Notes under the pieces: generated by a model
Told to the model about the DNA's origin: nothing
The model's input: only the letters and a program-made list of their open reading frames with translations
Database searches by the model: none
Source: a candidate division TA06 bacterium B3_TA06
Lineage (GTDB): Bacteria; Hydrothermota; Tepidihabitantia; B3-TA06
Length of the DNA stretch: 64,000 nucleotides
Assembly (NCBI GenBank): GCA_005223075.1
Contig: NJBO01000003.1
Location: forward strand, 81,555 to 145,554
Direction: 5' to 3'
Translations under genes and position numbers: made by a program
Part shown: piece by piece, positions 4,740 through 34,698 of the stretch
How the letters are laid out: the number at the start of each line of letters is the position of its first letter
How positions within the stretch are numbered: position 1 is the stretch's first letter

Positions 4740-6073
4740 CGTCACCTGAAAGTGAACGCATCCTGATAGTAGATGACGCTGTTGATACCCTGGAGGTCCT
4801 ACAGCGTAATCTGGCATCACAGGGCTATCAGGTCTTTACCGCGCAAAACGTGCCGGAAGCCTTAAGGTTGCTTGAAGACACCCAGGTTGATCTGGTGATA
4901 ACCGATTTAAAGATGCCCGGGGCAAGTGGCCTGGATCTGGTGCGATACGTGCGGGAGAACCTTGCGGACACCGAGGTGATGATGATTACAGGATATGCCA
5001 CCGTAGAGGGTGCTGTTCAGGCGGTAAAGCAAGGGGCCGAGGAGTATCTTTCAAAGCCCTTTACCGACGAGGAGCTTTTCTTGGCGGTAAGAAAGGCGCT
5101 TGACAAACTACGTATGCGCAGGGCCGCGCAGGTATCCGAGGATATCCCGTCGCCTCATGGGATAATCGGCTCCTCAAAGGTCATGCGCGAGGTCTTCGGC
5201 GCCATCCATAAGGCGGCGTCAACCCCGGCTACGGTGCTCATCACAGGGGAAAGCGGCACTGGCAAGGAGCTTGTGGCCAGGGCTATCCACTACTCAAGCC
5301 CACGTGCCTCACCACCCTTCGTGCCTATCAACTGCGGGGCTATACCGCATGAACTCCTGGAATCGGAACTCTTCGGGTATGTTAAGGGTGCGTTTACCGG
5401 CGCGGCAACGACCAGGGCAGGTTTCTTTCAAACCGCAGACGGCGGCACCATCTTCCTTGACGAGATCAGTGAAACAAGTCCGGCCATGCAGGTTAAGCTC
5501 TTGCGGGTGCTGCAGGACAAGGAGATCTTCATGCTCGGCTCACGAAAATCCGAAAAGGTTGATGTGAGGATTATTGCCGCAACCAATAAAGACCTACAGG
5601 CCCTTGTCAAAAAGCAAAACTTCAGGGAGGACCTTTACTACCGCCTCAACGTCATTACCATTGATCTTCCACCGCTGCGGGAGAGGGATGACGACATACT
5701 CCTGATGCTGCGACATTTTACGGAAAAGTTTGCAGAGGAGCTTGGCAAACCCACACCTAGCTTCTCTGACGAAGCGCTTGAGGTTCTAAAGAACTACCAC
5801 TGGCCCGGTAACGTGCGGGAACTCGAGAACGTAACCCAACGGTTGGTGGTGATGGTGGAGGGGGATACGATAGATGTTAAGGATTTGCCGGCACTTATGC
5901 GCTTTTCTCCAAAGGCTCAGGGATTTGAAAGGACCTTGGCCGAGGTGGAGGCAGAACACATACGCAACGTGTTGGCAAGCGTTAACGGCAACAAAACCAA
6001 AGCAGCAGAGATACTCCAAATCGACCGAAAGACCTTGCGCGAAAAACTCAGGAAGATGGAAGAATCCCAGTAA
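4736..6073 (+). CDS. sigma-54-dependent response regulator (NtrC family: REC + AAA+ sigma-54 activator + Fis-type HTH)
   Basis: REC domain (D in VITDLKMPG), Walker A (GESGTGKE), GAFTGA motif present, C-terminal HTH (KTKAAEILQIDRKTLREKL). Confidence 0.9.
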   Translation: MTSPESERILIVDDAVDTLEVLQRNLASQGYQVFTAQNVPEALRLLEDTQVDLVITDLKMPGASGLDLVRYVRENLADTEVMMITGYATVEGAVQAVKQGAEEYLSKPFTDEELFLAVRKALDKLRMRRAAQVSEDIPSPHGIIGSSKVMREVFGAIHKAASTPATVLITGESGTGKELVARAIHYSSPRASPPFVPINCGAIPHELLESELFGYVKGAFTGAATTRAGFFQTADGGTIFLDEISETSPAMQVKLLRVLQDKEIFMLGSRKSEKVDVRIIAATNKDLQALVKKQNFREDLYYRLNVITIDLPPLRERDDDILLMLRHFTEKFAEELGKPTPSFSDEALEVLKNYHWPGNVRELENVTQRLVVMVEGDTIDVKDLPALMRFSPKAQGFERTLAEVEAEHIRNVLASVNGNKTKAAEILQIDRKTLREKLRKMEESQ

Positions 6074-6671: not shown

Positions 6672-7934
6672 ATGAAAAAGGCGAGCGTTTACGATAACGT
6701 AACCAAGCAGTTTAACAAGGCTGCTGATTTGATGCATCTGGATCCTGAGATCCGCAAGGTACTTGCTAGAACCAACAATGAGGTAATCGTCAACTTTCCG
6801 GTTAAGATGGACGACGGCCACATCGAGATGTTCACCGGTTACCGGGTGCAGCACAACAACGTGCTTGGCCCTTACAAAGGGGGGCTGCGTTTTCACCCGG
6901 CGGTAGACATCGACGAGGTTCGCGCCCTTGCCACCTGGATGACATGGAAGTCGGCCATAGTGAACCTCCCGTTCGGTGGAGCAAAAGGCGGCATCCAGAT
7001 CGATCCATTCAAGTACTCGGCAAGCGAGCTTGAGCACATCACCCGCCGATTCACCTTTGCCCTGGGCTCGAACATAGGGCCTGAGTTCGACATCCCGGCA
7101 CCGGACGTAAACACCAACCCTCAGATAATGGCCTGGATCCTGGATACCTACCTCTCCACCATACCTGCCCACGAGCGTCAGGCGGCAGTCCATGTAGTTA
7201 CCGGCAAGCCTGTCGAGTCGGGTGGGAGCATAGGCCGCAACAAGGCTACTGGCCAGGGTGTGGTCTTTACCATCGAGCAGTGGGCCAAAGATACCAACTT
7301 TGATCTTGAGGGTGCGGCATACTTCGTTCAGGGATTCGGGAACGTGGGTTCCTGGGCGTCCCGTCTCCTCAAACCCCACGGTTCAAAGCTCGTTGCTGTC
7401 GAGGATGTAAGCGGGGCTATTGCCAATCCAAAGGGGATCGATCCCGACGACCTTTATGAGTATACGCAGAAGAATAAGGGATTGATTGGCGGCTACGCAA
7501 AGGCCAAACCTATTGATCACGAAACCTTCCTTGCGACCAAGGCCGACATCTTCATCCCGGCGGCTCTTGAGAACCAGATCACACTAAAGACCGCTCCAAT
7601 GCTTAACGTGAAGCTGGTTGCCGAAGGCGCAAACGGTCCCACCAATCCGGACGGTGATAAGATTCTTAATGAAAAGGGAACCGATCTTCTTCCAGACGTC
7701 CTTTGCAACGCGGGCGGCGTGATCGTAAGCTACTTCGAGTGGCTGCAGAACAAACGCAGCGAGTTCTGGGATCTTGAAGAGGTGGATGGAAAACTGCACC
7801 GCAAGATCGTTGCAGGCTACGAACGCGTTCGCGATACGGCTCGAGAGCACAACATAGACTGGCGAACCGCGGCCTACATCGTCGCTCTCTCACGTCTTGA
7901 AACGGTATACAAGGAACGTGGAATCTTCCCATGA
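6672..7934 (+). CDS. gdhA: glutamate dehydrogenase (Glu/Leu/Phe/Val dehydrogenase family), canonical
   Basis: PYKGGLRFHP and LPFGGAKGGI motifs intact; C-terminal NAD(P)-binding domain (VQGFGNVG). Confidence 0.9.
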   Translation: MKKASVYDNVTKQFNKAADLMHLDPEIRKVLARTNNEVIVNFPVKMDDGHIEMFTGYRVQHNNVLGPYKGGLRFHPAVDIDEVRALATWMTWKSAIVNLPFGGAKGGIQIDPFKYSASELEHITRRFTFALGSNIGPEFDIPAPDVNTNPQIMAWILDTYLSTIPAHERQAAVHVVTGKPVESGGSIGRNKATGQGVVFTIEQWAKDTNFDLEGAAYFVQGFGNVGSWASRLLKPHGSKLVAVEDVSGAIANPKGIDPDDLYEYTQKNKGLIGGYAKAKPIDHETFLATKADIFIPAALENQITLKTAPMLNVKLVAEGANGPTNPDGDKILNEKGTDLLPDVLCNAGGVIVSYFEWLQNKRSEFWDLEEVDGKLHRKIVAGYERVRDTAREHNIDWRTAAYIVALSRLETVYKERGIFP

Positions 7935-8008: not shown

Positions 8009-9277
8009 GTGATGATGAAGAAGGAAACCGGTTTCTACGGCGACGTTCTTGAGGGGCTCCATAATGCCGCGGATTTGATGAAGCTAGACTGTGAGGTTCT
8101 CAAAATCCTTACCAAGACTACCAACGAGATTACCGTCAACTTCCCGGTAAAGATGTCAAACGGTCTGGTGGAGATGTTCACTGGCTATCGTGTGCAGCAC
8201 AACAACGTGATGGGTCCCTACTCGGGCGGACTTCGCTTTCATCCCTGGGTTGATCTGGGAGAGATGCGCGCGCTTGCTACTGTGATGACGTGTAAGGCGG
8301 CTATCGCCGGTATCCCATTCGGCGGGGCTGCAGGCGGGATCCAGTTCAACCCCTCTGACTACAACTCCTCTGATGTGGAACGAATCACCCGCCGCTTTAC
8401 CTACTCACTTGGCTCGAACATCGGAGCGGAGTACGACATACTCACCTCGGACGTGAACACAAACCCCCAAACTATGGCCTGGATACTGGATACCTACCTC
8501 TCTACCATGCCTCCGGAAAAAAGGCAGGCCAAAACACACGTGGTCACCGGCAAACCCATCCACCTGGGCGGCAGCGTCGGACACGACAAAGCAGCGGGCC
8601 AGGGGCTTGTCTTTGCCATCGAGGAATGGGCAGCTGGTCACCGTTTCGATCTTGAGGGTGCTGCCTACACGGTTCAAGGATTCGGAAGTGTAGGTGTTTG
8701 GACCTCCATCTTGCTCAATCAAAAAGGAGCAAAACTCGTTGCCGTTGAGGATACCTCTGGGCCCATCCTTAACCCGGATGGAATTGATCCTGAAGACCTT
8801 TTCGCCTACGACAAGGAGAACGGACGCATAGCAGGCTACCCCAATGCAAAACCGATAGATCACGAGGCCTTCCTTGCTACAAAAGCCGATATATTCATCC
8901 CAGCCGCGTTGGAGTATCAGATCACCGCCCAGACCGCACCCAAGCTCAACGTCAAGTTGGTGGTCGAGGGAGCCGACTGCCCCTGCGATCGAGATGGCTC
9001 AAAGATCTTGAAGGAGAGGGGAATTGAGGTGCTCCCAGACATCCTGTGCAACTCCGGCGGCGTGATCGTGAGCTACTTCGAGTGGCTGCAGAACAAACGA
9101 AGCGAGCTGTGGGAACTTGAAGAGGTAGACCGCAAACTGCAGAACAAGATGAAGGACGCTTACCACCGGGTGCGCGACCGAGCAGCGGAGTTCAATACCG
9201 ACTGGTGCACCGCCGCACGCATCGAGGCACTTACCAGACTGGAGAGAATCTACAAGAGACGAGGTATCTTCCCGTAA
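8009..9277 (+). CDS. glutamate dehydrogenase-family paralog with substitutions at two conserved lysines (possible pseudo-enzyme or altered specificity)
   Basis: It aligns with the upstream GDH along its whole length. It has PYSGGLRFHP (K to S) and IPFGGAAGGI (catalytic K to A). The true start is probably the ATG at 8012 or 8015, after AAGGAG. Confidence 0.85.
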   Translation: MMMKKETGFYGDVLEGLHNAADLMKLDCEVLKILTKTTNEITVNFPVKMSNGLVEMFTGYRVQHNNVMGPYSGGLRFHPWVDLGEMRALATVMTCKAAIAGIPFGGAAGGIQFNPSDYNSSDVERITRRFTYSLGSNIGAEYDILTSDVNTNPQTMAWILDTYLSTMPPEKRQAKTHVVTGKPIHLGGSVGHDKAAGQGLVFAIEEWAAGHRFDLEGAAYTVQGFGSVGVWTSILLNQKGAKLVAVEDTSGPILNPDGIDPEDLFAYDKENGRIAGYPNAKPIDHEAFLATKADIFIPAALEYQITAQTAPKLNVKLVVEGADCPCDRDGSKILKERGIEVLPDILCNSGGVIVSYFEWLQNKRSELWELEEVDRKLQNKMKDAYHRVRDRAAEFNTDWCTAARIEALTRLERIYKRRGIFP

Positions 9278-12576: not shown

Positions 12577-13428
12577 GAACTCTATCCGTCTATTCCTGTA
12601 TGTCAAGAGGCAATACCGGACCCCCCGGCGACATGCCATCGCAGGCAGATACCGCCGGCAGGTTCGGGAACCGCTTTAACTCATCCGTATGCTGAGAGTT
12701 AATCTTAACGGTTATGATCCTGGAAGGATCGGGGGAGCTCGGAAAAGGTCTCTTCCCCTAGATCAACACCAACCACCTCATCGTTTACCCAAATCCTGGT
12801 TTCACGTTATCCCTCCTTGGATGCATACTATCTGCTTTGGCAGAGGAAGTCAAGTGGACAAATGTCTGTGCGCCAAGAGATTGTTACCAGGGTAGCGTGA
12901 TAGGGTGAGGGAAAGATGTGGAACAGCCTTACCTGCCTCTGTGCACGAGGGTGTCGCTCAATTCAAATTGCAAACTGCAAATTCTAAATTGCAAATTTGT
13001 CTGGATACAAGCGATAGAACTGTGGGCTTCGATTATGGAGAGATGAAGGGTATATGTTTGAGATTCTAATGAGTGTTGGTCCAGAGGGATAGATAAGCCT
13101 GGTTGTGGAGTATAGCTAATTACTAAGTCCAACAGTTTATAAAAACCGTCGCCGTCAATCTTGGGGTTATCCTTTAAGTTTGGGAATTGGCCATCACAGT
13201 GGACCAATTTAGCGAGTTGCAGGCCGATAAGTTCAAATAATCGGCAAGTTACCTTTGGCGGCAACCGCATTCAGACCATGCGGATAAGAATACCTCCTCA
13301 AGCAAAGGCCTTCTGTCTTCAGCACACTATCTTCTCCCTTGATGGGAAGGAGAGGTAACGAATGCTTCCTATCTTGACATCTTCGGCTGAGCCGTGTAGG
13401 ATATTCCTAATCCAACAAGGAGGAAAAG

Positions 13429-14565
13429 ATGAATAACCTTGCGTTCATAAAACGAGCAGCGCTCGTTATCCTTGCGCTGCTGATGCCCGTAACTGTTACC
13501 TGCAAGAAACAAGCCGGGAATAACAACCAAGTCGAGGAACGGTATCTCATCATCACTGAAGAAGGCGGGGACGAGAAAGAGATAGATGTCACCGGCTGGG
13601 AGCCTGGCGAAGAGTTCGTCTGGTTGAGTGGATTCGGCTACCCCTGGCAAGGTGAAGACAGCCTTGACTACCGTATCGAGGATGGTCTTCTATGGGTGAA
13701 CGGCAAGCTGGTCGGTGCGGACCTTGAAGAGGTCGCGTTCGCCGATCTGTCCAATCCTGAGGAGATAGTTAGCGTTCGCACGGATGCAGAGCATATGTTG
13801 GAGCTGAAGCGATTCCCCAATCTTACTGTAGTATTTCCTTTTGTCATAAAAGATGATGACTTGGCACACCTTAAGGGTTTCACCAACCTTAGGGCGTTGT
13901 ATCTGCTCGGGCCCCTGATCACGGACGCCGGGCTTCGCCACCTTTCAGGCCTCACCAACCTGAGGGAGTTGTATCTGTGGGAGACCGACATCACGGACGC
14001 AGGGTTTGTGCATCTCAAGGGTCTCACCAACCTGAGGGTGTTGAGTTTGTTCGAGACGGATATCACCGACGCCGGGCTTCGCCACCTTGAGGGACTCAAG
14101 AACCTGAGGGTGTTGGGTCTGCTCGGTACCGATATCACGGACGCCGGGCTTGCCCACCTTAAAGGTCTCACTAACCTGAAGGGGTTGTATCTGAACGGCA
14201 CCGATGTCACGGACGCCGGGCTTCGCCACCTTTCAGGCCTCACCAACCTGAGGGTGTTGGATCTGGGGGCCACCGACATCACGGACGCTGGGCTTACGCA
14301 CCTTAAAGGACTCACCAACCTGAGGGAGTTGAATCTGTGGTATACCGCTATCACCGACGCGGGACTTAAACACCTTAAAGGTCTCACCAACCTGAGGGAG
14401 TTGAATCTGCGGAATACCGACATCACGGACGCCGGGCTTCGCCACCTTGAGGGCCTCAAGAATCTGAGGATGTTGGATCTGTGGAGAACCAAGATCACGG
14501 ACGCCGGGGAAAAAGAGTTAAAAAAGGCGCTGCCGGAGTGTGGGATTTACCGTCATTATAGGTAA
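13429..14565 (+). CDS. secreted leucine-rich-repeat (LRR) protein
   Basis: Signal peptide present. There are about 9 tandem 24-aa repeats (LKGLTNLRxLxLxxTDITDAGLxH). Confidence 0.85.
   Translation: MNNLAFIKRAALVILALLMPVTVTCKKQAGNNNQVEERYLIITEEGGDEKEIDVTGWEPGEEFVWLSGFGYPWQGEDSLDYRIEDGLLWVNGKLVGADLEEVAFADLSNPEEIVSVRTDAEHMLELKRFPNLTVVFPFVIKDDDLAHLKGFTNLRALYLLGPLITDAGLRHLSGLTNLRELYLWETDITDAGFVHLKGLTNLRVLSLFETDITDAGLRHLEGLKNLRVLGLLGTDITDAGLAHLKGLTNLKGLYLNGTDVTDAGLRHLSGLTNLRVLDLGATDITDAGLTHLKGLTNLRELNLWYTAITDAGLKHLKGLTNLRELNLRNTDITDAGLRHLEGLKNLRMLDLWRTKITDAGEKELKKALPECGIYRHYR
13849..14497. repeat. about 9 tandem 72-bp coding repeats (LRR units)
   Basis: Near-identical 72-bp units are visible in the DNA. 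The antisense ORFs in the track are artefacts of these repeats. Confidence 0.8.
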
Positions 14566-15071
14566 GGATCGCAGAGGGAGCTAACGGCATGGACGCGGCT
14601 GCGCCGCTCATTTCAAATTTCAAAGTGCAAAATGCAAATTGAAGGTGCGCTAACGGCTAACAGCTCACCGCCGACCGCCCACGGCTGACAGCAAACGTGT
14701 ATAGGGTGTACCTTAAAGCATCCGTGGGATATTAGTTCGCTAGCGAGGCTGATACCCTATGAACGCATACAGTGCTCAAGGGATATGCTATACCTGACGG
14801 GAGCACGCTGTCCCATTAAGGGAGGAGAGTAATCTGCCTCCTCTATAAGAACCAGTCATGTAAACAGTTACACCTGTATCCAAACTCTAAACCCTCATGC
14901 ACCCCCCCTACCTCCCTATGCATCTTGCCAACCGACCCAGATTAACTTCCCTTAAAGGCATCTAACTAATATTCTCGAATCTCCCTCTACCCTCTTCTCC
15001 AGACCCCCCAATTAGTCCGCTCTCATGGTCAATTCCCTTAAGTTTTTCTATCCTTAGTTTAGCTGTATCGT

Positions 15072-15464
15072 TCATTGCGCCAGCCATTTCTCTATTGTGA
15101 CGGTGGTTCCATGACCTGGTTGGGTATTGATCTCCATATGGTCAGTAAGCCTTTTCGCACCGGGTAGTCCTTTCCCCATGGCCTTCATTGAGGACCAGCC
15201 GTCCTTTAGAGCCAGTTCCACATCATCTATTCCCGGACCATTATCGATGAAGCTTATGCGAATCCCGCTGTGAGAATCGGAGTGTTCTTCTATGTGAACT
15301 TCTCCTTCGCCTGCGTAGAGGTAGATGTTTCGGGCCAGCTCAGATACCGCGGTGCTGATCCGGGTCTGATCAACAAGCCCGAAACCTAACTTTCGAGCCA
15401 CCTCTTTTGCTGCGGCACGTGCGTGGACGATGTCAGATTCCTCTTTAATCGGAACCACTATCAT
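15072..15464 (-). CDS. rsbT: RsbT-like anti-sigma regulatory factor / serine kinase (stressosome switch kinase)
   Basis: The 130-aa protein has GHKL ATPase motifs (ELARNI, DNGPGI, GKGLPG). It is similar to B. subtilis RsbT. Confidence 0.8.
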   Translation of the reverse strand: MIVVPIKEESDIVHARAAAKEVARKLGFGLVDQTRISTAVSELARNIYLYAGEGEVHIEEHSDSHSGIRISFIDNGPGIDDVELALKDGWSSMKAMGKGLPGAKRLTDHMEINTQPGHGTTVTIEKWLAQ

Positions 15465-15882
15465 CCGCTTCCTCTTCTTCGCTTTCCTCCTCGAGACCTT
15501 GCTTCTCTGAGGCCTTCTCCTTCAGGCTCTCCTGCAGGAGTTCGTAGCCTTCGTCAAGGTTTATTGCTGTCCTTACCCCACCTAAGGAAAGCCCCAACTC
15601 CACCAATGTGATGGCAACCGCTGGCTGCATGCCCACGATCACGATCTCCGCATCAAGTGTAGAGGCCATCCTGGCTGTGTCCGCAAGGGTGCGCCCCATG
15701 AAGGAATCAACCATCTCCAAGGCTGAGATATCGATGAGTACGCCCTTGGCCTGAGTCTGGGAGATGCGCTCGAGGATATCTTGCTGAAGCTGCTGGGCTA
15801 TCCGGTCGTGCAGGTCAATCTGGATGGAGACGAGCAGGAAATCCTTCAGCTTAAGGATAGGAATAGAGGTGTTCTCTAGCAT
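15445..15882 (-). CDS. rsbS: RsbS-like STAS-domain stressosome scaffold protein with acidic C-terminal tail
   Basis: The internal start MLENTSIPILKLKDFLLVSIQ matches the RsbS N-terminus. A STAS domain follows. The tail is EEESEEEEADDSGSD. Confidence 0.8.
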   Translation of the reverse strand: MLENTSIPILKLKDFLLVSIQIDLHDRIAQQLQQDILERISQTQAKGVLIDISALEMVDSFMGRTLADTARMASTLDAEIVIVGMQPAVAITLVELGLSLGGVRTAINLDEGYELLQESLKEKASEKQGLEEESEEEEADDSGSD

Positions 15883-15884
15883 GG

Positions 15885-16535
15885 CTAGGCTTTCCGCTCT
15901 TCTACCATCCTTATGTTCAGACGCCCAAAGGCCCACTTCAAACCTTCAGCCAGGGTAGAGAGTGTCTCTACCCCTGAGAGATCCACCCCCAGATGCACCA
16001 TGGTCTGGGCGACCTCCGGTCGTATGCCGGTGATAACGCAGTCAGCACCCAGAAGCTGCACCGCGGCAATCGTTTTTAACATGTGATTGGCTACAGCCGA
16101 GTCAACCGTGGGAACGCCGGTGATGTCCAGTATGGTCACCTTGGTTTGGGTGGCCGCGATATCTGTCAAGAGGGACTCGGTGAGCCTCTGCGAGCGCCGG
16201 GTATCGAGCGTTCCGATAAGGGGCAGAACCAGCACACGCTCCCATATCTTGATGATGGGTGTTGAAAGCTCCTCAATTGCCTTGCGCTGTTGCTCGATAA
16301 GGGCGAGTTTTTCCTCAAGCTCTTCGGCCTTCTTCGTGCTCTCGCGAACCTCCTCGCCCATGTCGGAGATCACGAGATTTATCCCGGTCTCTACTGCGCT
16401 AAGGGCATCGGCCTTCTCTATATCGGTGTCGGTCTCAATCTGGACCCCGAAATCGCCGCACGCGGCCTGAGAAAGAATCTCTTCCATCCTTTCGATTCGG
16501 CTTTCCAGATCGGCTATCCCTTTCGTTTTAGCCAT
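15885..16535 (-). CDS. RsbR-like stressosome sensor protein (short coiled-coil N-domain + STAS)
   Basis: The motif STPIIKIWERVLVLPLIGTLDTRRSQ is typical of the RsbR STAS domain. The gene is adjacent to rsbS and rsbT. Confidence 0.7.
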   Translation of the reverse strand: MAKTKGIADLESRIERMEEILSQAACGDFGVQIETDTDIEKADALSAVETGINLVISDMGEEVRESTKKAEELEEKLALIEQQRKAIEELSTPIIKIWERVLVLPLIGTLDTRRSQRLTESLLTDIAATQTKVTILDITGVPTVDSAVANHMLKTIAAVQLLGADCVITGIRPEVAQTMVHLGVDLSGVETLSTLAEGLKWAFGRLNIRMVEERKA

Positions 16536-16561
16536 ACTTCACTCCTTCACAATGAGGCTAA

Positions 16562-16960
16562 TTACTTTGATTCCTTCTCTTTTCCCTTTTCGTCTTTCAG
16601 CCAGGCAAGGGCTTCTTCTTCCGTGTCGAAGAACTTGAGATCTCTCCCTCTTCCTATCGCTGTGAATACGATTTTGCCAAGCATCCGGAGTGTCGGGTTC
16701 GCTCCATGGATCGCTATCTTACCCCAGTTGACCAGGTTGATAGTTTCGCGGATTGTCTTGCGGGTCTGTTTATCGTGGAGAGTCTGAGACTCCTCGGCCA
16801 GCTCGATGAAGAAGTAGCGGTGTAGCTCGGGTTCAAAATTGTCTTTGACAAAATGGAAGAAGCCGGAGGTACCCTCCGAGTCTAATGCCTGATAGAGAAC
16901 CGCGCGCATCACCTCGTTTTCCTCGTCGAACCAGATCTTGTACTTCTCTTTCTCCTCCAT
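16562..16960 (-). CDS. SpoIIAA-like/STAS (DUF3478-type) small protein, copy 1
   Basis: The 132-aa protein ends in the pattern ...KFFDTEEEALAWLK, characteristic of the SpoIIAA-like family. A paralog lies at 18970-19362. Confidence 0.6.
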   Translation of the reverse strand: MEEKEKYKIWFDEENEVMRAVLYQALDSEGTSGFFHFVKDNFEPELHRYFFIELAEESQTLHDKQTRKTIRETINLVNWGKIAIHGANPTLRMLGKIVFTAIGRGRDLKFFDTEEEALAWLKDEKGKEKESK

Positions 16961-17121
16961 TTTTATTCTCCTTTCAGCGATTTAAAGGTTTTCTTGCGCA
17001 AGAAAAGCGAGTATCTTGCTTGCACCGAATCAGGTTTAGTCCCGATTCAGCTACGGCTAACATTATTCTGTCTTCATCTATGCCCACACTACCCATACTT
17101 GTAAGGGGGAAATCTTTGAAC

Positions 17122-17149
17122 ATATTACTGTTTTTCCTTCCCTTGTCAA
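17122..17149 (-). promoter_or_regulatory. candidate sigma-70 promoter (minus strand) for STAS-like gene copy 1
   Basis: Read on the minus strand, TTGACA is followed by a 16-nt spacer and TAATAT. This is conserved in the second copy. Confidence 0.4.
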
Positions 17150-17297
17150 CCCCATTTGATCAGCTCATCCTATTAATGCCCGAACATCCTTAAATAATAT
17201 TATTTTATTACATTTATCTAAAGGAACCAGCTAGATGGAGTCATTTCTAATTTTATTGGCTACTTCTTCCTATCTGAAAAATGACCTAAATGTTCAC

Positions 17298-17325
17298 TTG
17301 ACATATGCAGTTTTTTGATTATAAT
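17298..17325 (+). promoter_or_regulatory. candidate sigma-70 promoter for LuxE-like gene copy 1 (TTGACA-16-TATAAT), followed by ~160-nt conserved leader
   Basis: It has consensus hexamers and is identical in the second copy at 19696-19723. Confidence 0.5.
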
Positions 17326-17491
17326 CAATCAACGAACAAAAGGAGTCGTTCTTTGGAAATAAAAAACTGCTTCGCACACAGCGGGTGTTTCAGCAAAGAC
17401 TAACGCAGGCTTTACCGCTTCGAAAAGCCTGAAAACCTTAGCCAAAACTGCTTGATACATTTAAGTATCAAGTATTAAAAAGGAGAGCTAA

Positions 17492-18655
17492 ATGCCGAAA
17501 ACCACAAAAAAAACAAACAAGTATGCAACAGATTCGGAGTTCGTCCGCGATCTGGAGCATGACATCACTGCCTTCATAAAGGCCGGCGCTGAACAATCCG
17601 ATGTCGACGAAAAGTACAACGAACTCGCCCTTCGGTTGTTTGAGTACCAATACAACATGAACATACCTTACCAGAAGTACTGTGACAAATACGGCAAAAA
17701 ACCAGGCACCATAGATTCCTGGGAAGAGATTCCCGTGGTTACCACTTCCGCATTCAAGGAAGTGACATTCAGGACCTTTCCGGAGGAAGAAACTGTAATG
17801 CTCATGACCAGTAGCGGAACAGACGATCCTGAAAAGCGCTCAAAGGTCTATCTTAATAAGATGGGTCTCGAGTTATTCGACTTGTCCACCCAAACCGCAA
17901 TAGAACTTGGATTGTATGGTTCCCCGGATGAGAAGTTTCACGCATTGTTGCTCGGTCCCGATCCCGAATTAACGCCCGAGGCATCTATAGTGGTACGCGG
18001 ACTAATACAAGTGGTTGAAGGGCATTATATCGGGAAGCCGGAATTCTTCATAAAGCCTGATGGGTTCGATTTCGCAGGCCTTGCCGAAAGACTCAGGCAG
18101 GCCGAAGAGACCGGTGAACCGGTGGTGATCGCTGGAGCCACGTTCGGACATATCCACTTCTTTGACTATTGCCAATCCCAGGGCATCTCCTTCAAGCTGC
18201 CCGAAGGCAGCCGCTGCTTTGACGGTGGAGGCTACAAAGGCAAAGCAAGACAGATCACCAGAGAAGAGTACTGTCAACTGGCTAAAAAGGTACTTGACGT
18301 ACCGTCACATCTTCTTGTAAATTGCTACGGCATGGTCGAGGTACCCTTGCCTTTCATGGAAAACGTATTCTACAACCACAGAAAAGGCATAAAGGAACCA
18401 CGCTACAAGATGATTCCTCACTGGGGGAAAACCCTGGTTGTTGATCCCGACACCCTGAAGCCTTTGCCCAAGGGCGAACGAGGATTGCTTCGTCATTACT
18501 GTTTGGCTAATCTTGTGACCGCGCAGGCTATTCAAACGGATGATGTAGGTGTCGCAATCGGTTCCGGCTTCGAAATCTTGGGCCGTGCAAAAGGCTCCGA
18601 GGCGCGCGGCTGTTCCATTGCCATTGACGAACTCCTCAGCGCACAAAAAAAATAA
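17492..18655 (+). CDS. LuxE-family acyl-protein synthetase (fatty acid-activating, PaaK/LuxE adenylating superfamily), copy 1
   Basis: From memory it aligns with Vibrio LuxE: N-terminal F.YQ.N..Y..YC...G..P, central TSSGT, C-terminal GRAKGSEARGCSIAIDEL with the acylated Cys position. Size is 387 aa. Confidence 0.8.
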   Translation: MPKTTKKTNKYATDSEFVRDLEHDITAFIKAGAEQSDVDEKYNELALRLFEYQYNMNIPYQKYCDKYGKKPGTIDSWEEIPVVTTSAFKEVTFRTFPEEETVMLMTSSGTDDPEKRSKVYLNKMGLELFDLSTQTAIELGLYGSPDEKFHALLLGPDPELTPEASIVVRGLIQVVEGHYIGKPEFFIKPDGFDFAGLAERLRQAEETGEPVVIAGATFGHIHFFDYCQSQGISFKLPEGSRCFDGGGYKGKARQITREEYCQLAKKVLDVPSHLLVNCYGMVEVPLPFMENVFYNHRKGIKEPRYKMIPHWGKTLVVDPDTLKPLPKGERGLLRHYCLANLVTAQAIQTDDVGVAIGSGFEILGRAKGSEARGCSIAIDELLSAQKK

Positions 18656-18969: not shown

Positions 18970-19362
18970 TTACTCTGATTCCTTCTCTTTTTCAGCCTTC
19001 AGCCAAGCAAGGGCCTCTTCTTCGGTTGCGAAGAACTTGGTATCCTTCGCCCTTCCAAGTGCCGTCGCTGCGATTCTGCCAAACATCCGCACGGCTGGTT
19101 TCGCGCCGCAGATCGCTATCTTGTAGAAATCAAGACTCGCAGCCCCATCCTTTAGTAATTTACGGCCTTCCTTCTCGGGTATAATCTGGCCACGTTCGGA
19201 AGAGATCTTGACTGATAGATAACGCCGTTGCTCCGGGGTGAATCCCTTTGCAGAGTTAATGAAACTTCCTACGTCTTCCGTCTCGAACTTATCAAAGATC
19301 TCCAGCCACAGTACCCCGTTCTCCTCGTCGTACCAGAGTTTGGATTTGTCTTTCTCTTTCAT
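18970..19362 (-). CDS. SpoIIAA-like/STAS (DUF3478-type) small protein, copy 2
   Basis: This 130-aa protein is a paralog of 16562-16960. It has the same C-terminal TEEEALAWLK motif. Confidence 0.6.
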   Translation of the reverse strand: MKEKDKSKLWYDEENGVLWLEIFDKFETEDVGSFINSAKGFTPEQRRYLSVKISSERGQIIPEKEGRKLLKDGAASLDFYKIAICGAKPAVRMFGRIAATALGRAKDTKFFATEEEALAWLKAEKEKESE

Positions 19363-19695
19363 TTTTCTCCTCCTTTTGGCGATTTAAGGGTTTCCTCGCG
19401 CAATAAAAGCGAGTCTCTTGCTTGCATCGAATCTGGTTTTAAGCCTGATTCAGTCACAGCAAGCATTACACTTCTCTATGCCCACACTACCCATACTTGT
19501 AAGCGGGGAATCTTTGGACATATTACTGTTTTTCTTTCCTTTGTCAAGTCCATTTGATTAGCTCACTCTATTAATGCCCGAACATCCCTAAATAATATTA
19601 TTTTATTACATTTATCTAAAGGAACCAACTAAATGGAACCATCTGTAGTCTTATTGGCTATCCATTTCTATTTGGAAAATGACCTAAATGTTCAC

Positions 19696-19723
19696 TTGAC
19701 ATATGCAATTTTTTGACTATAAT
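19696..19723 (+). promoter_or_regulatory. candidate sigma-70 promoter for LuxE-like gene copy 2
   Basis: TTGACA-16-TATAAT, as in copy 1. Confidence 0.5.
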
Positions 19724-19889
19724 CAATCAATGAATAAAAAGAGTCGTTCTTTAGAGATGAAGAACTGCTTCGCCCACAGCGGGTGTTTCAGCAAAGACTA
19801 ACGCAGGTGTTGCCGCTTCTAAAAGCCTGAAAACGTTAGCCGAAAACGCTTGATACATTAAAGTATCAAGTATTAAGAAGGAGGAACAA

Positions 19890-21041
19890 ATGCCGAAAAC
19901 AACAAAAAAAACAAAGAGGTATGCAGCCGATTCGGACTTCGTCCGCAATCTGGAACAGGACATCACAGCCTTCATAAAGGCAGGACGTGATCAAGCCGGC
20001 ACCGAGGAGCGCTTCAATGAACTGGCCCTTCTGTTGTTCGAGTACCATTATAACGCGAATGCGCCCTATCAGAAGTACTGCCAGAAAAGAGGAGTTGCCC
20101 CAGGCGAGATCCGCTCCTGGACACAGATCCCTGCGGTGCCCACAACCGCTTTCAAGGAGATCCCCTTATGCACCTTCCCACCGGAAAAGGCTGTGAAGGT
20201 CTTCACGAGCAGCGGGACCACCCAGCAGACCAAGCGCTCAACCCTTTATTTCGATGAAGCCGGGCTTCGCTTGCTTGAGCTGTCTCAGCAGACGGTGGTG
20301 ACTGAGACCATGTGTCGTGATTTCGACAAGGCTCGTCTTTTGCTCGCTGCTCCCCCACCAACTATGGCTCCCAATTTGGCGTTGACCAACTACCCGCTGC
20401 TCGCGCTTAAAGGCCGCCTGATTGGTGAGCCGGTGTATCTTATCGGCAAGGAAGGACTTGATTTCCCTGGATTGGTAGCGAACTTAAGAGAAGCCGAAGA
20501 TCCCCTGATTCTGACCGGAGCCACGTTCGCGTTCCTTCACTTCTTCGAGTACTCGAAATCCCAGAATATGTCGTTCCGGCTTCCCGAGAAAAGCGTTATA
20601 AACGACGGCGGAGGCTTCAAAGGGCAGGCGCGAGAGATACCCAGGGAAGAGTACTTCGAATTGGCCCGTCAGGTTCTCGGAATTCCACCGGAGCGCATCC
20701 TGAACGCCTACGGTTTGAGCGAGGTGGCCACGGGATTCAATGATAACGGATTGTACAACAAGACTAACGGCATAGATGGCCCACGTTACAAGATGATCCC
20801 GCACTGGGTTAAAGCGGTTGTGGTCGATCCGGATACGCTCAAACCCCTGCCCAAAGGCCAAACCGGCTTGCTGCGCTACCACTGCCTAACCAACTTTTCG
20901 AACGTGATGGCCGTGCAAAGCGACGATGTGGGTTATGCGGTCGAAGATGGCTTTGAGGTCGTAGGCAGAGCAAAAGGTGCTGAAGCACGCGGCTGCTCCA
21001 TTGCCATGGACGAGCTGATCAGTGCCCAAAAAATGAAGTAG
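19890..21041 (+). CDS. LuxE-family acyl-protein synthetase, copy 2
   Basis: It is a paralog of 17492-18655, roughly 55% identical by eye. The C-terminal Cys motif is retained (GRAKGAEARGCSIAMDEL). Confidence 0.8.
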   Translation: MPKTTKKTKRYAADSDFVRNLEQDITAFIKAGRDQAGTEERFNELALLLFEYHYNANAPYQKYCQKRGVAPGEIRSWTQIPAVPTTAFKEIPLCTFPPEKAVKVFTSSGTTQQTKRSTLYFDEAGLRLLELSQQTVVTETMCRDFDKARLLLAAPPPTMAPNLALTNYPLLALKGRLIGEPVYLIGKEGLDFPGLVANLREAEDPLILTGATFAFLHFFEYSKSQNMSFRLPEKSVINDGGGFKGQAREIPREEYFELARQVLGIPPERILNAYGLSEVATGFNDNGLYNKTNGIDGPRYKMIPHWVKAVVVDPDTLKPLPKGQTGLLRYHCLTNFSNVMAVQSDDVGYAVEDGFEVVGRAKGAEARGCSIAMDELISAQKMK

Positions 21042-21049
21042 CCGGCAAG

Positions 21050-22483
21050 ATGAGAGAAACATCAATCCCAGCGTTCTTCCTGCCCGAAGTTGCTGAGGCT
21101 GACCTTGGGGAGTTTACTACGCTTGAGTTCGGGCAAGGCCAGAACACGGTCAGGATGCATTCTCCCCTCCTTACACCTGCTTTGCTCTCCAAGATCATAG
21201 CGCAACTTAAAGAAGCGCGGGAGGAATACCTCGCCAAGCTCCCTGTCTATGAGATCATCGAAACCATAGATAAAGCCGTGGCACTTTGGCGCGATCCAGA
21301 CTACCCACTGCGTCGCAAGGCCGAAGCGCTACTTCCTCTCATCACCGGCTACTCCAGCGAGATGATTACCCAGACCCTGGACGAGATCGTACTCATGTTG
21401 CGGGGAGAAGACCTGAAGCTCCTTCTTGAAGAGGAGTTAGGCGACCCTCTGTTTCTGGATCAATTCAGGCCGCGGCCGAAAAGCACCGGGATGTGCAAGG
21501 TCTACGGGCCTCGTCTCACCACCGCCGTGTTCGCAGGCAACGTTCCAGGACTTCCTGTGGCAAACATCGTCTATGCGCTGCTCATGAAATCGGCGATCTT
21601 AGGCAAGTCATCCTCTGAGGAGCCTTTGTTCGGCGTTCTATTCGCACAAACTCTGGCTGAGATAGATCCTGAGCTGGCTCGCTCTGTTGCCATGGTTTGC
21701 TGGAAAGGCGGCGATGTGGAGATCGAACACCTGGCTTTTGGCTCCTCGGATGCTGTGGTTGTCTATGGCGGAGAGCATTCTGTAAACGAAGTCCGGAAGC
21801 GGGTTCCTTTCCGAACCCGCTTCATCGCCTACGGGCATAAACTCAGCTTCGGGGTCATAGGCCGCGAGCATCTAGCAGCGGACCGCGTCAGGCAGACGGC
21901 GGCCTGGGCAGCCGTAGACGCATCAGTCTTTGATCAGCAGGGGTGCCTGTCTCCTCACGTGTTCTACGTAGAAGAAGGCGGCCAGACCACGCCCAAGGAG
22001 TTTGCGAGGCTGTTGGCTAGCGAGATGGAGGCCTTTAACCAAAAGATCCCTCGCGGGAGGATCTCGCCTGACGAATCGGCACATATCAACCAGCTACGTG
22101 GCTCATACGAGTTCCGGGAGTTTGAAGACCAAGGTGTAGCACTGCATGCGAGCTCACGGGGTACGGACTGGACGGTTATCTACGAACGCGATCCGGCATT
22201 CGTGCCGTCGTGTCTGAATCGAACCATCCGCATCAAGCCGGTGAAAGACGTATCAGAAGTGGTTGGATTGATCGAACCCATAAAGGGCTACCTGCAGACG
22301 GTAGGCGCAGCTCTGCCACAAGAAAGGTTCTTATCCCTGGCGAATAAGATGGGCCAACTAGGGGCAGATCGCATCTGCCCTCTGGGCAAGATGACCGCTC
22401 CTTCCCTCACCTGGCATCACGACGGACGCTTCAACATACTCGATCTGCTCAGATGGACTGATATAGAACAAGGCTCAACATAA
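21050..22483 (+). CDS. LuxC-family acyl-CoA (acyl-protein) reductase, aldehyde-dehydrogenase-like
   Basis: The protein is 477 aa, the size of LuxC. It immediately follows LuxE. It has an NADPH-binding-like region (VFAGNVPGLP) and a conserved Cys (GCLSPH). Confidence 0.7.
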   Translation: MRETSIPAFFLPEVAEADLGEFTTLEFGQGQNTVRMHSPLLTPALLSKIIAQLKEAREEYLAKLPVYEIIETIDKAVALWRDPDYPLRRKAEALLPLITGYSSEMITQTLDEIVLMLRGEDLKLLLEEELGDPLFLDQFRPRPKSTGMCKVYGPRLTTAVFAGNVPGLPVANIVYALLMKSAILGKSSSEEPLFGVLFAQTLAEIDPELARSVAMVCWKGGDVEIEHLAFGSSDAVVVYGGEHSVNEVRKRVPFRTRFIAYGHKLSFGVIGREHLAADRVRQTAAWAAVDASVFDQQGCLSPHVFYVEEGGQTTPKEFARLLASEMEAFNQKIPRGRISPDESAHINQLRGSYEFREFEDQGVALHASSRGTDWTVIYERDPAFVPSCLNRTIRIKPVKDVSEVVGLIEPIKGYLQTVGAALPQERFLSLANKMGQLGADRICPLGKMTAPSLTWHHDGRFNILDLLRWTDIEQGST

Positions 22484-22605: not shown

Positions 22606-23526
22606 TCATGACGCCAGCCCTGTTAACTCCTCACTGATTTTCCACAGCCGCTGCCAAGCTTCTTGGTTGTAAGAGGCTTTGGACGAACGCTTGGGTTTTC
22701 GCTTGGAGAAATACTTTCCGGTGACGCCCTCCACCTCCGGCGAGGACGCCAGATAGATGCTGGTCAGCGCACCCTCCTCAGGGGGAATCGCCCATAAGAG
22801 GTTAAAACTCACCCACCTGACTATCCTAAGAGCACCCCTAACCTGATGCGCCACGTTGGTCTTCACAAAGCCAGGATTGAGGGCATTTACCGTGACCCCG
22901 GTGCCCGCCAGCCGCCGCGCGAGTTCGTAGCTGAACATGAGCAGGGCAAGCTTGGAGTGGGTATATGCTGGGATACCGAAGAATTTTTCCCTGGTTGGTA
23001 GTTCGTTAAGATTTAACCCCTTAACCCATGCGTGCATGAAGGAGGAAACATTGACTATGCGGGACGGAGCACTGGTCTTGAGGACATCAAGTAACAGGTG
23101 GGTCAACAAAAAAGGAGCGATATGGTTGACGGCAAAGAACATCTCGATACCGTCGGAGCTCTGGGCTCGTTCGGCAAGACCAATGCCAGCGTTGTTTATG
23201 AGCACGTCCAGGCGTTGATAGCGATCCTTAAACTCCTGGGCCAGTCGGCGAATCTGAGCCTGCGAGGAGAGATCGGCAAGCATCAAATCAACCAAATCGT
23301 TTCCGCTCTCCCTCTTGATCTCGAGCCTGGCTGCCTCGCCTCGTTCCTTGCTGCGGCAGGCCATAACTACGGTCGCGCCCATCTTTGCCAATCCCAGAGC
23401 GGTTTCCTTGCCTATACCTGAGTTAGCTCCTGTCACCAGGCAGACCTTGCCTTTCATTTCATTCATCTTAGCCTCCTTGGTCTTTAGACTTATGTCTTTA
23501 AAGTCTGCCATTGAAGTCGTTGACAT
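22606..23526 (-). CDS. short-chain dehydrogenase/reductase (SDR) family oxidoreductase
   Basis: TGANSGIG Rossmann motif, NNAG motif, and the catalytic YxxxK region. Confidence 0.85.
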   Translation of the reverse strand: MSTTSMADFKDISLKTKEAKMNEMKGKVCLVTGANSGIGKETALGLAKMGATVVMACRSKERGEAARLEIKRESGNDLVDLMLADLSSQAQIRRLAQEFKDRYQRLDVLINNAGIGLAERAQSSDGIEMFFAVNHIAPFLLTHLLLDVLKTSAPSRIVNVSSFMHAWVKGLNLNELPTREKFFGIPAYTHSKLALLMFSYELARRLAGTGVTVNALNPGFVKTNVAHQVRGALRIVRWVSFNLLWAIPPEEGALTSIYLASSPEVEGVTGKYFSKRKPKRSSKASYNQEAWQRLWKISEELTGLAS

Positions 23527-23789: not shown

Positions 23790-24362
23790 ATGAGAGTTTA
23801 TCAATGTGGTAAGCGTTGGTATGTCGAGGACTCATACAACCCGAAAAGGTACCGCCGGTCCGCGGGTCGGACTAAGCGGGAGGCTCTTTTAAAACTTGGC
23901 GAGATTGAACGCTACAAAGAAGTCTGGATAGAGAATGTAAAGTCTGCTTCCGTTAACCGTGAGTTGGCGTTACTAAGGCATATGCTCCGTAAGGCAATAG
24001 ATTGGGATTACCTGCGGAAAGAAAATCCTGCAAGCAGGGTGAAACAGTTCAAGGAACCCTCAGGACGGGTAAGATACCTCTCCTTTGAAGAAAGAGAGCA
24101 ATTACTTGAAGCGTGTAAGCGGACTGGTATCGAGGATTTCCATTGTCACAGCCTTAGACACACCTTTGCCTCTTATCGCGTTATGGCGGGTGTAGACATC
24201 CGAACGGTTCAGGTACTGATGGGACACAAGGACATCAAGATGACCATGCGGTATTCGCATCTTTCCAAGAGATACCTCAGAAAGGCGGTAAACCGGATGG
24301 TCACAAATTGGTCACAAGTCGAGGATGCACCCGTCGAGCAATCTCCCAAGTTACGGAGTTAA
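23790..24362 (+). pseudogene. degenerate tyrosine-recombinase (integrase) remnant lacking most of the catalytic core
   Basis: The N-terminus is integrase-like (RRSAGRTKREALLKLGEIE). Box II is present (HSLRHTFAS...LMGHKDIKMTMRYSHL). The protein is only 190 aa, and the Box I Arg region between LSFEERE and HSLRH is missing. Confidence 0.5.
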
Positions 24363-24370
24363 AGAAACTT

Positions 24371-24442
24371 GCCGACGTAGCTCAGCGGTAGAGCAACGCT
24401 TTCGTAAAGCGTAGGCCGGTGGTTCGAATCCACTCGTCGGCT
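24371..24442 (+). tRNA. tRNA-Thr (anticodon CGU)
   Basis: A manual cloverleaf fold gives a 7-bp acceptor stem, D and T arms (GGTTCGAATCC), and anticodon loop TTCGTAA. No CCA is encoded. Confidence 0.9.
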
Positions 24443-24757
24443 TTTTCAATCGTTACCCAGTAGGGCGCAACCCGTTGTAACACAAGCACTTACAAGGGAT
24501 ATAGGTATCCCTTTGGGCGGGTGCAAGGTTTACCCTATCACACCTGAAAAGTAGGCGTTTGGGTGCAAAAATGGCTAAGAACCCCTAAAATAACACACCT
24601 ACTGACACAGCCCAAAAGGTGCTCGGAGAAACACAGCCCAAACACACCGCCGTCAGTTTGGGCCGCTGCCCAGAACTCAAAAGGTTAGTGCAGTAGGTCT
24701 ATATCTTCTCAAGCCGCTCTCTGAATCCGTCTTTCAAATGTACACGGGGCAACCTCG

Positions 24758-24973
24758 TCATTTTACCCGAATGTAAGTGTATCCTTCCTTTTTTATGTTT
24801 TGATCCAAATACTGACCTTTTGAAGGAGCATTCATAAGACCATCATATAAGGCAAGTGGAACACCAAAGTATTGATAGATTCTACCCCCATGAAACTCCA
24901 CCTCTAAGACTTGAGTAGATCGGTTGTACCCTACGGATACAAGATTACTCGATTGAACTGGGATTCTCTTCAT
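24758..24973 (-). CDS. KTSC-domain protein (71 aa)
   Basis: It matches the KTSC consensus (SSNLVSVGYNRSTQVLEVEFHGGRIYQYFGVPLALYDGLMNAPSKGQY). Its RBS overlaps the stop of the upstream ATPase gene. Confidence 0.7.
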   Translation of the reverse strand: MKRIPVQSSNLVSVGYNRSTQVLEVEFHGGRIYQYFGVPLALYDGLMNAPSKGQYLDQNIKKEGYTYIRVK

Positions 24974-24982
24974 CTTGTCACC

Positions 24983-27475: not shown

Positions 27476-27713
27476 TGCCTGCCTCTCTCAATTCCTTCAA
27501 CCCATTAAGAATCTCTTCTTTGGTAAATCTACTGCTATAAAAAAGGGAACGTAAAAGACCCATAACATCGGCATCGATCCGCAAAATGTCAAGTTCTTTA
27601 AAGAACTCCGCAACTAATTCCTTGCCTGTTTTTATGTCGGAAGCCTTCTCTCGCTCTTGTTCGCCCATTCCTATTTTCGGCTGTTCTTTTGTCTCGCCTG
27701 AAGATTCGGTCAT
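27468..27713 (-). CDS. hypothetical small protein (81 aa) between RM gene and ATPase gene
   Basis: A plausible RBS precedes the ORF. It overlaps the start of the downstream ATPase by 8 bp. No recognisable motif was found. Confidence 0.4.
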   Translation of the reverse strand: MTESSGETKEQPKIGMGEQEREKASDIKTGKELVAEFFKELDILRIDADVMGLLRSLFYSSRFTKEEILNGLKELREAGNG

Positions 27714-34575: not shown

Positions 34576-34698
34576 CTGAACGTCTCTCGGAGGCTCCAGT
34601 CTCCGAGAGGCTTCAGAAGACGAGGGCCGAAGGCCCGAGTCTTAACTAAGATTGGATAATTTGAAAAGATATTGCCACTGCCCAGAAAGGAGGGTATC

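Follow-up and report, generated by a model that had tools for sequence, protein, structure and literature searches.

What does a stressosome core act upon when no output gene lies beside it? The question is raised by an rsbR-rsbS-rsbT gene trio in a 64,000-nucleotide stretch of DNA (hereafter the window) from the candidate division TA06 bacterium B3_TA06 (contig NJBO01000003.1, positions 81,555 to 145,554 of the forward strand). An initial annotation, made from the sequence without database searches, had described the trio as a stressosome module without an adjacent output. Our results indicate that positions 15072-16960 form a four-gene operon for a small STAS-fold protein, RsbR, RsbS and RsbT, which is predicted to encode a functional stressosome core of a kind restricted to the WOR-3/TA06 ("Stahlbacteria") clade. 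We favor a reading, with a probability of roughly 0.6, in which this core is one part of a split operon: small STAS-fold proteins would act as its sensors or adaptors, a phosphatase fusion would be supplied in trans, and LuxE, LuxC and a short-chain dehydrogenase (SDR) would be the source of a ligand or a target of the system.

The stressosome core and its operon

The operon consists of the following genes.

16562 to 16960, minus strand: Sp2AA_a, a small STAS-fold protein of 132 aa (CEE36_03205), the operon's first gene
15885 to 16535, minus strand: RsbR-like co-antagonist of 216 aa, with a hairpin at about residues 1-90 followed by a STAS domain at the C-terminus
15445 to 15882, minus strand: RsbS-like antagonist of 145 aa (TKJ43706.1), consisting of one STAS domain and an acidic C-terminal tail
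15072 to 15464, minus strand: RsbT-like GHKL serine kinase of 130 aa (CEE36_03190)

The three stressosome genes are tightly coupled in the order R-S-T, with a gap of 2 nt between rsbR and rsbS and an overlap of 20 nt between rsbS and rsbT. Only 26 nt separate the end of the Sp2AA_a gene from the start of rsbR, and the operon actually begins with Sp2AA_a. The true start codon of rsbS is the ATG at 15882 (MLENTS...), and a 163-aa open reading frame (ORF) that starts from 15936 is an over-extension.

Several lines of evidence bear out the earlier identification of the trio as homologs of the stressosome core. Pfam detected a STAS domain in RsbR (residues 95-186, E = 5.5e-17) and in RsbS (E = 3.4e-10), and the motif LPLIGTLDTRRSQ, by which the STAS domain of RsbR had first been recognized, was located at residues 104-116. 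Searches of PDB sequences matched RsbR to Listeria RsbR (E = 1.2e-32) and RsbS to the Listeria (E = 3.4e-30) and B. subtilis (E = 4.9e-30) RsbS proteins; for window RsbT, this search gave no match at E <= 0.001. RsbT shares 52-54% identity with Bacillus RsbT, and the GHKL motifs ascribed to it were recovered by Pfam as HATPase_c (E = 1.5e-11) and HATPase_c_2 (E = 7.8e-10) matches. Its N, G1 and G2 boxes (N46, D74xGxG78 and G97xGxxG102) are intact, and they are invariant in 30 clade sequences.

The phospho-acceptors of RsbR are T171 and T205 in B. subtilis and T175 and T209 in Listeria. In our alignment, S146 and T178 of window RsbR align with Listeria T175 and T209, respectively, and both of these predicted phospho-acceptors are invariant in 61 clade sequences. 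The predicted phospho-acceptor of RsbS, S60, aligned to S56 of Listeria and S59 of B. subtilis, and PDB entry 9o4r has Ala at this place. Relative to their orthologs in two related loci (L007 and L002; L numbers designate the loci compared), rsbR, rsbS and rsbT have dN/dS values of 0.12-0.30, indicating that the genes are under purifying selection. The RsbRST core falls squarely within the rsbRST(X) family, and GenBank already annotates it so; RsbR of B3_TA06 is annotated as 'sigma-b regulator rsbr'. With this RsbT identity, and with RsbS and RsbR STAS matches at about 1e-30, the core is orthologous to that of the Bacillus subtilis/Listeria sigma-B stressosome (rsbR-S-T-U-V-W-sigB-rsbX), a system from which the window differs in having no RsbU, RsbV, RsbW or SigB.

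The N-terminal domain of RsbR had been described as unusually short rather than globin-like. This agrees with an AlphaFold2 model based on 61 sequences (mean pLDDT 76.7), which predicts a helical hairpin made of a helix at residues 10-25, a loop, and a long helix at residues 44-90 that leads into the STAS domain. A canonical sensor domain of about 130-150 aa (globin, PAS, LOV or haem-globin) was not found in the model, and no Pfam family matched the N-terminal domain. A HAMP label, suspected from the pattern GDF...D.L..VE.GINL, was rejected, as Pfam gave no HAMP match at E <= 10. The domain is strongly conserved clade-wide, and the mean column identity of RsbR is 61%. In Bacillus, the diversity of sensing lies in paralogous RsbR N-terminal domains. 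In the clade studied here, in contrast, the RsbR N-terminus is conserved and the diversity is found in separate small STAS-fold proteins.

Related loci also hold other arrangements of these parts. Separate ORFs of 75-85 aa whose products share 40-46% identity with the RsbR hairpin were observed inside arrays of DUF7793 genes, the family of small STAS-fold proteins described below.

L006, 4658-4915 and 9607-9846: standalone hairpin ORFs
L010, 6887-7123: standalone hairpin ORF
L098, 1092-1319: standalone hairpin ORF
L099, 2701-2928: standalone hairpin ORF

Orphan rsbR genes of the short N-terminal type, without rsbS or rsbT, occur in L004 (8699-10654), L005 and L100 (149-2104), where they are preceded by genes for a conserved 162-aa protein and a single-domain response regulator; that of L004 adjoins PAS histidine kinases and sigma-54 activators. 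In these orphan loci, the same type of RsbR may be wired differently. A tandem pair of rsbS genes lies between rsbR and rsbT in L012 (6427-7285) and in L096 (980-1841).

The surroundings of rsbT and a phosphatase encoded in trans

According to the initial annotation, no PP2C phosphatase, sigma factor, two-component or GGDEF output is near the trio. Pfam scans of the whole 64-kb window, covering about 45 further ORFs, upheld most of this statement, as no PP2C/SpoIIE, sigma factor, RsbU_N or GGDEF match was obtained. The part that concerned two-component systems has to be corrected, since a GAF-HisKA-HATPase kinase (2817-4739) and a sigma-54-type response regulator (4736-6073) are encoded 9-12 kb from rsbT. 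An RsbU_N PP2C, an RsbV/RsbW pair and a sigma-B gene were found neither in the window nor in the clade loci examined. The idea of a recurrent output family among the neighbors was also rejected: of 66 neighbor proteins, the only ones to share a recurring domain were 9 with a response-regulator receiver domain, which include 4 sigma-54 activators and occupy inconsistent positions.

The region 3' of rsbT carries three features.

14566 to 15071: spacer of 506 bp without an ORF
13429 to 14565, plus strand: LRR gene, 378 aa with a signal-peptide-like N-terminus (Pfam LRR_4, E = 1.3e-35)
13181 to 15032: insertion of about 1.85 kb that comprises the LRR gene and most of the spacer, identified by blastn against relatives and lying outside the system

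The spacer had been reported as about 500 bp of CT-rich non-coding DNA with an LRR gene beyond it on the opposite strand. Its length, its lack of an ORF and the orientation of the LRR gene were as reported; at 54% C+T on the plus strand, however, it is not notably CT-rich. The insertion, which separates rsbT from a gene for a TonB-dependent receptor, is present in the window and in L088 and absent from L007, L090 and L092. A remnant of a phosphatase pseudogene in the spacer was considered and rejected, as tblastn found none and the sole match was that of rsbT itself to the HATPase part of the query. In L002/L003 (11594-15058), where RsbR is 92% identical to window RsbR, rsbT is followed by the gene for a TPR protein of about 1,150 aa, whose C-terminal region appears by eye to be CHAT-like in its His/Cys residues.

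An RsbX-type PP2C was not found directly downstream of window rsbT and is instead provided in trans. On another contig, of 122,677 bp, B3_TA06 encodes a fusion of a HATPase domain with an RsbX-type PP2C domain (TKJ43145.1, CEE36_05185), flanked, with consecutive accessions, by a second RsbT (TKJ43146.1) and a small STAS/SEC14-like protein (TKJ43144.1, CEE36_05180). This second B3_TA06 locus was read via accession adjacency and its ortholog L008 (Stahlbacteria E44_bin36), not directly. In L008, the gene order is STAS-like, RsbS', RsbT', HATPase-PP2C and STAS-like, and the 20 kb read around the phosphatase locus contain no detectable rsbR. The fusion gene of the relatives L008, L010 and L013 encodes 334-338 aa with HATPase_c_2 and SpoIIE/PP2C domains, and its start overlaps the stop of rsbT. 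The best PDB matches of the PP2C domain were Moorella MtX (3zt9, E = 5.1e-14) and B. subtilis RsbX (3w40, E = 1.4e-13), and the N-terminal domain matched SpoIIAB.

A complete operon with the order RsbR, RsbS, RsbT, HATPase-PP2C fusion and small STAS-like protein is carried by relatives from WOR-3 and "Stahlbacteria"; it was found in L013, L167, L168 and L169, and L010 carries the complete operon with a doubled S-T pair. A neighbor-joining tree groups the phosphatase-linked RsbT' with the RsbR-linked RsbT of Stahlbacteria as sisters, and likewise the two L010 copies with each other, which points to lineage-specific duplications. Taken with the second B3_TA06 locus, the complete operon of the relatives suggests that the window copy is a duplicate without the last two genes. 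On these sequence comparisons, Stahlbacteria appear to have duplicated rsbS-rsbT, after which rsbR, with the STAS-like and luxE genes upstream of it, would have stayed with the window copy, and the phosphatase fusion, with the STAS-like gene that follows it, with the other copy (CEE36_05180 to about 05190).

The claim of a module without an output is thereby narrowed. It holds for the immediate neighborhood of the trio, but an RsbX-type fusion lies beside a second RsbT in the same genome, and comparison of the operon in relatives, where rsbR-rsbS-rsbT and the phosphatase fusion share one operon, does not support a module without a partner. Of the RsbU, RsbX or PP2C partners that the initial annotation proposed to look for, a look-up of protein clusters located this fusion; the second site is not the RsbU/RsbV/RsbW/SigB cascade that had been named there as a refutation. 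The absence of an adjacent phosphatase is not unusual, since a PP2C gene lies within 300 bp downstream in only 34 of 86 non-clade rsbT genes and in none of the remaining 52; these loci have at least 1.5 kb of downstream sequence and simple ORF calls, and the sample is rich in Chloroflexi.

The rsbRSTX set is reportedly a minimal stressosome module (Pané-Farré et al. 2005), and Moorella is reported to have one (Quin et al. 2012). An rsbRSTX-type module is also present in Vibrio vulnificus (PMC9237108). The clade shares with such modules the R-S-T order with its tight coupling, the double phospho-acceptor STAS domain of RsbR, the RsbS Ser, a 130-aa GHKL RsbT and a phosphatase domain of the RsbX/MtX type, and the SigB cascade is absent here as in most non-Bacillales modules. 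It differs from them in several respects. In B3_TA06, rsbX is found at another site, along with a duplicated rsbS-rsbT pair. The phosphatase has an N-terminal RsbT/SpoIIAB-like HATPase domain rather than being a single domain, RsbR has its hairpin of about 90 aa in place of a sensor of the globin, PAS or LOV kind, and upstream of rsbR there is a STAS-fold gene, or an array of such genes, of the DUF7793 family. Downstream, the module is not joined to one of the c-di-GMP, two-component or RsbU_N type.

The small STAS-fold family and the paired luxE genes

Upstream of rsbR, the operon adjoins the following features.

16961 to 17491: IG1, conserved divergent intergenic region of 531 bp between Sp2AA_a and luxE1
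17492 to 18655, plus strand: LuxE-like acyl-protein synthetase 1, 387 aa (CEE36_03210; Pfam LuxE, E = 4.7e-25)
18970 to 19362, minus strand: Sp2AA_b, second small STAS-fold paralog, 130 aa (CEE36_03215), monocistronic
19363 to 19889: IG2, second conserved intergenic copy, with a promoter pair as in IG1
19890 to 21041, plus strand: LuxE-like acyl-protein synthetase 2, 383 aa (Pfam LuxE, E = 4.2e-27)
21050 to 22483, plus strand: LuxC-like acyl-CoA/acyl-protein reductase, 477 aa (Pfam LuxC, E = 1.1e-97, 328 bits)
22606 to 23526, minus strand: SDR, 306 aa (Pfam adh_short, E = 3.4e-41)

Sp2AA_a and Sp2AA_b are 45% identical. Against Pfam PF11964, which has a cut-off of 25 bits, Sp2AA_a scored 22.2 bits (E = 2.3e-4) and Sp2AA_b 25.5 bits, and Sp2AA_b also matched DUF7793. 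At E <= 0.01, DUF7793 was matched by 49 and PF11964 by 48 of the 57 family members. The family profile matched PDB 3bl4 (E = 6.4e-9), 2q3l, 2ook and SpoIIAA, and UniRef labels Sp2AA_a as a STAS/SEC14 domain protein. An AlphaFold2 model of Sp2AA_a, built from an alignment of two sequences only (pLDDT 87.9, pTM 0.80), has the order beta-beta-alpha-beta-alpha-beta-alpha-beta-alpha; Foldseek matched it to SpoIIAA, TM1081 and RsbS at probability 1.00 with TM-scores of 0.56-0.67, and RsbV was matched as well. From these profile and structure matches, the small proteins are predicted to have a STAS/SpoIIAA-like alpha-beta fold. Within the 57 family sequences, no conserved Ser or Thr was found at the canonical phospho-site (DSSG in SpoIIAA, at the N-terminus of helix alpha-2), and only R67 and W120 are near-invariant.

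The clade family shares with PF11964/DUF3478 proteins (2q3l, 2ook and 3bl4) the STAS/SpoIIAA-like fold, a length of about 125 aa, the absence of a phospho-Ser and the C-terminal motif FF-x-[ST]-x-[ED]-[ED]-A-x-x-W-L. It differs from them in that sequence similarity is low, with Sp2AA_a under the Pfam threshold, and in that the clade family is nearer to DUF7793; furthermore, in Shewanella the proteins have no link to genes of a stressosome. The PF11964 structures contain a large non-polar/hydrophobic cavity (Kumar et al. 2010, PMC2954212).

For 17 of 20 non-redundant rsbR genes of the short N-terminal type, a family member is encoded on the same strand no more than 300 bp upstream, a count that covers loci with available upstream sequence and RsbR identities of about 60-95%. 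Array sizes of 11, 14, 17 and 18 copies were found in L012, L010 and L006, and L168 has at least 13 copies, whereas the family was absent from the 73 rsbT loci of other phyla that were fetched. The mean column identity of the family is 27%, versus 61% for RsbR; its orthologs are 58-66% identical where those of RsbR are 89-92% identical, and their dN/dS is 0.45-0.73. A more distant family member is always located 3' of the phosphatase gene in the loci examined, and the STAS-like gene is translationally coupled to the HATPase-PP2C end in L008, L010, L013, L167, L168 and L169.

Each STAS-like gene of the window, like each copy in Stahlbacteria, is divergent from a luxE-like gene, and luxE2 is followed by luxC. 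Such divergent pairs number two in the window, five in L001 (within 20 kb), two in L002 and one each in L007, L009, L011 and L090-L094, and they also occur in L003 and L089. The upstream STAS-like proteins and LuxE/LuxC had been put forward as the nearest candidates for an output, and both proved to be conserved neighbors across the loci of relatives.

The window LuxE proteins score 88-95 bits against Pfam LuxE. LuxE2 aligns over its full length with Photobacterium (P. phosphoreum) LuxE (7xc6_E, E = 3.5e-23) and keeps the catalytic Lys (Lys238) and the C-terminal acyl-accepting Cys motif (RGCS, Cys364), residues known from LuxE (PMC9157457). The luxE-luxC adjacency is a further likeness to the LuxC-LuxE system of bioluminescence (7xc6). 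Here, however, the NCBIfam scores are far under the equivalog cut-offs (86.6 versus 550 bits for LuxE1 and 106.9 versus 750 bits for LuxC), window scans turned up no luciferase (luxA, luxB) or luxD families, and there are extra luxE copies without luxC, each luxE being divergent from a STAS-fold gene. As judged from their sequences, LuxE and LuxC are probably fatty-acid-reductase-type enzymes with a non-luminescent role. The SDR gene keeps its position by luxC in L002, L007, L009 and L011, and a possible function of its product is an aldehyde-to-alcohol step.

IG1 and IG2 are 86% identical, and the corresponding regions of relatives are 78-96% identical to them (78-89% for IG1). The genes that flank them are paralogs with 59-62% nucleotide identity and saturated dS, and the conservation of IG1/IG2 exceeds that at synonymous sites. 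A perfect sigma-70 consensus faces each luxE gene (17298-17325 and 19696-19723, plus strand), and promoter-like sites with 10 of 12 consensus positions face the STAS-like genes (17149-17122 and 19547-19520, minus strand). The predicted leaders are about 155-165 nt on both sides, that of luxE1 being about 165 nt.

Within the luxE leaders, a 14-nt motif, ACAGC[GT]GGTGTTTC, was observed at about 17403-17416 and about 19801-19814 (alignment columns 84-97). It is near-invariant in the Stahlbacteria copies and in four distant copies of L001; in one copy of L002 the fifth base is T instead of C, and a short hairpin with compensatory changes lies 3' of it. A sigma-54 promoter reading of the 14-nt motif was rejected, as by eye it fits just one copy. 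The luxE leader RNA had no match in Rfam, and RNAalifold folded it into no more than two short helices (-0.88 kcal/mol in total).

Other regions of the window were noted in passing. The stretch at 23790-33578 is low in GC (41-48% versus about 54%), contains a truncated and a full tyrosine integrase, and looks like an integrated defense island; it encodes an SMC/AAA_23-type ATPase (24983-27475) and a 1,241-aa Eco57I/MmeI-type restriction-modification fusion (27922-31647). Tandem Glu/Leu/Phe/Val dehydrogenase paralogs at 6672-7934 and 8009-9277 are syntenic in L007, L088 and L092. An alpha-2-macroglobulin (A2M) cluster at 33859-43297 comprises DUF1175/NlpC-P60, a 1,534-aa A2M, a transpeptidase, a SpoIID-like protein and two ORFs without a Pfam family.

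Proposed mechanism and alternative readings

By homology with known stressosomes, in which RsbR and RsbS assemble into a pseudo-icosahedral complex of about 1.8 MDa that sequesters RsbT, RsbR and RsbS would form a scaffold that holds RsbT. Upon a signal, RsbT would phosphorylate S60 of RsbS and S146/T178 of RsbR and then leave the scaffold, and the phosphatase fusion, encoded in trans, would reset the complex; the kinase-like domain of the fusion may dock the phosphatase onto the STAS scaffold. Because the RsbR hairpin is conserved, and the STAS-fold proteins are hypervariable, amplified and encoded upstream of rsbR, this gene context suggests that the latter are most likely exchangeable sensor or adaptor subunits that would feed the core. 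The signals may be hydrophobic ligands, as proposed for the PF11964 relatives, and the LuxE/LuxC/SDR set of Stahlbacteria (fatty acid to aldehyde to alcohol) could, again from its context, be the source of the ligand or a co-regulated target. A more far-reaching version, which we consider doubtful, holds that the DUF7793 proteins constitute an unrecognized class of stressosome subunit, a "split RsbR" in which detachable, diversifying ligand sensors, with up to about 18 paralogs per locus, would dock on the RsbR hairpin and, through LuxE/LuxC in Stahlbacteria, would couple the core to fatty aldehyde/alcohol metabolism.

Alternatively, and close to what the initial annotation had suggested, the STAS-fold proteins might be the output itself: RsbT or the HATPase domain of the fusion would bind them in the manner of SpoIIAB and SpoIIAA, and partner switching would control a LuxE/LuxC effector. 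The best structural matches of Sp2AA_a, which are SpoIIAA chains from SpoIIAB complexes together with RsbS and RsbV, agree with this idea, as does the one-to-one pairing of luxE with a STAS-like gene, and the coupling of a STAS-like gene to the HATPase-PP2C end at six loci resembles the RsbU/RsbV/RsbW arrangement. However, the family has no conserved phosphorylatable residue at the position of SpoIIAA S58/RsbV S56, the arrays upstream of rsbR in L006, L010, L012 and L168 have no matching set of effectors nearby, and the STAS-like genes are located upstream of and co-oriented with rsbR instead of downstream of rsbT, so that we consider an output role rather unlikely.

We think it still less likely that the STAS-fold proteins are fatty-acid/aldehyde carriers for LuxE/LuxC, with their link to rsbR a matter of inherited synteny and the core acting via the phosphatase locus alone. 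The PF11964 relatives have been proposed to carry non-polar molecules (PMC2954212), some luxE/STAS-like pairs (that of Sp2AA_b and several in L001) are not followed by rsbR, and closely related genomes supply most of the luxE-linked loci. Against a carrier role stand the large arrays that directly precede rsbR in the luxE-free loci L006, L010, L012 and L168, the adjacency to rsbR in 17 of 20 loci across RsbR identities of about 60-95%, and the absence of the family beside rsbT in every other phylum sampled. Finally, that the window module is a decaying, non-functional duplicate cut off from its phosphatase seems highly improbable, for although the last two genes of the complete operon are missing and an unrelated 1.85-kb insertion with the LRR gene lies 3' of rsbT, all ORFs are intact with every catalytic and phospho-acceptor residue retained, dN/dS is 0.12-0.30, the same truncated arrangement occurs in at least 8 related contigs, and, with no rsbR in 20 kb at L008, the window locus is on present evidence what supplies RsbR.

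Several observations temper the favored reading of a split-operon core with small STAS-fold sensors or adaptors. The roles given to the STAS-fold proteins and to LuxE/LuxC are drawn from gene neighborhood only, and a family without a phospho-site Ser/Thr fits a non-substrate role and does not prove one. L167 and L169 have complete operons without an upstream STAS-like array, which means that the arrays are not obligatory. The loci with big arrays, L006, L010 and L012, lack luxE pairing, making the luxE link specific to a sub-lineage, and many luxE-positive loci are close relatives, so that their counts are inflated by shared ancestry. The neighbor-joining tree comprises about 125 aligned columns and has no support values. 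The search for an output covered the window and the clade loci, and RsbU_N partners, sigma factors or outputs of another kind elsewhere in B3_TA06 are possible.

The system departs from the rsbRST(X) family in its split operon, the kinase-like domain on an RsbX-type phosphatase and the minimal RsbR N-terminus, and in its accessory genes, which are the new element here: the clade-restricted, amplified DUF7793 family and its pairing with luxE. Full-text literature searches found no published link of stressosomes with DUF7793/PF11964 or with TA06/Stahlbacteria. The outputs of most non-Firmicute stressosomes are unidentified (PMC9237108), and what stressosomes sense and what the non-Firmicute ones control are open questions (PMC9237108, PMC11821858). 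Because the phosphatase is encoded elsewhere in this genome, the lack of an output next to an rsbRST operon should not be taken as a sign that the genome has none. The clade offers a natural experiment, in which the sensor part of RsbR is reduced to a conserved hairpin while small STAS-fold proteins of a separate family have multiplied next to it. If these proteins do sense signals, they are small, soluble and easily expressed, and ligand screening would be far easier than with full stressosomes; the recurrent luxE/luxC pairing points to fatty acids, aldehydes or alcohols as the class of ligand.

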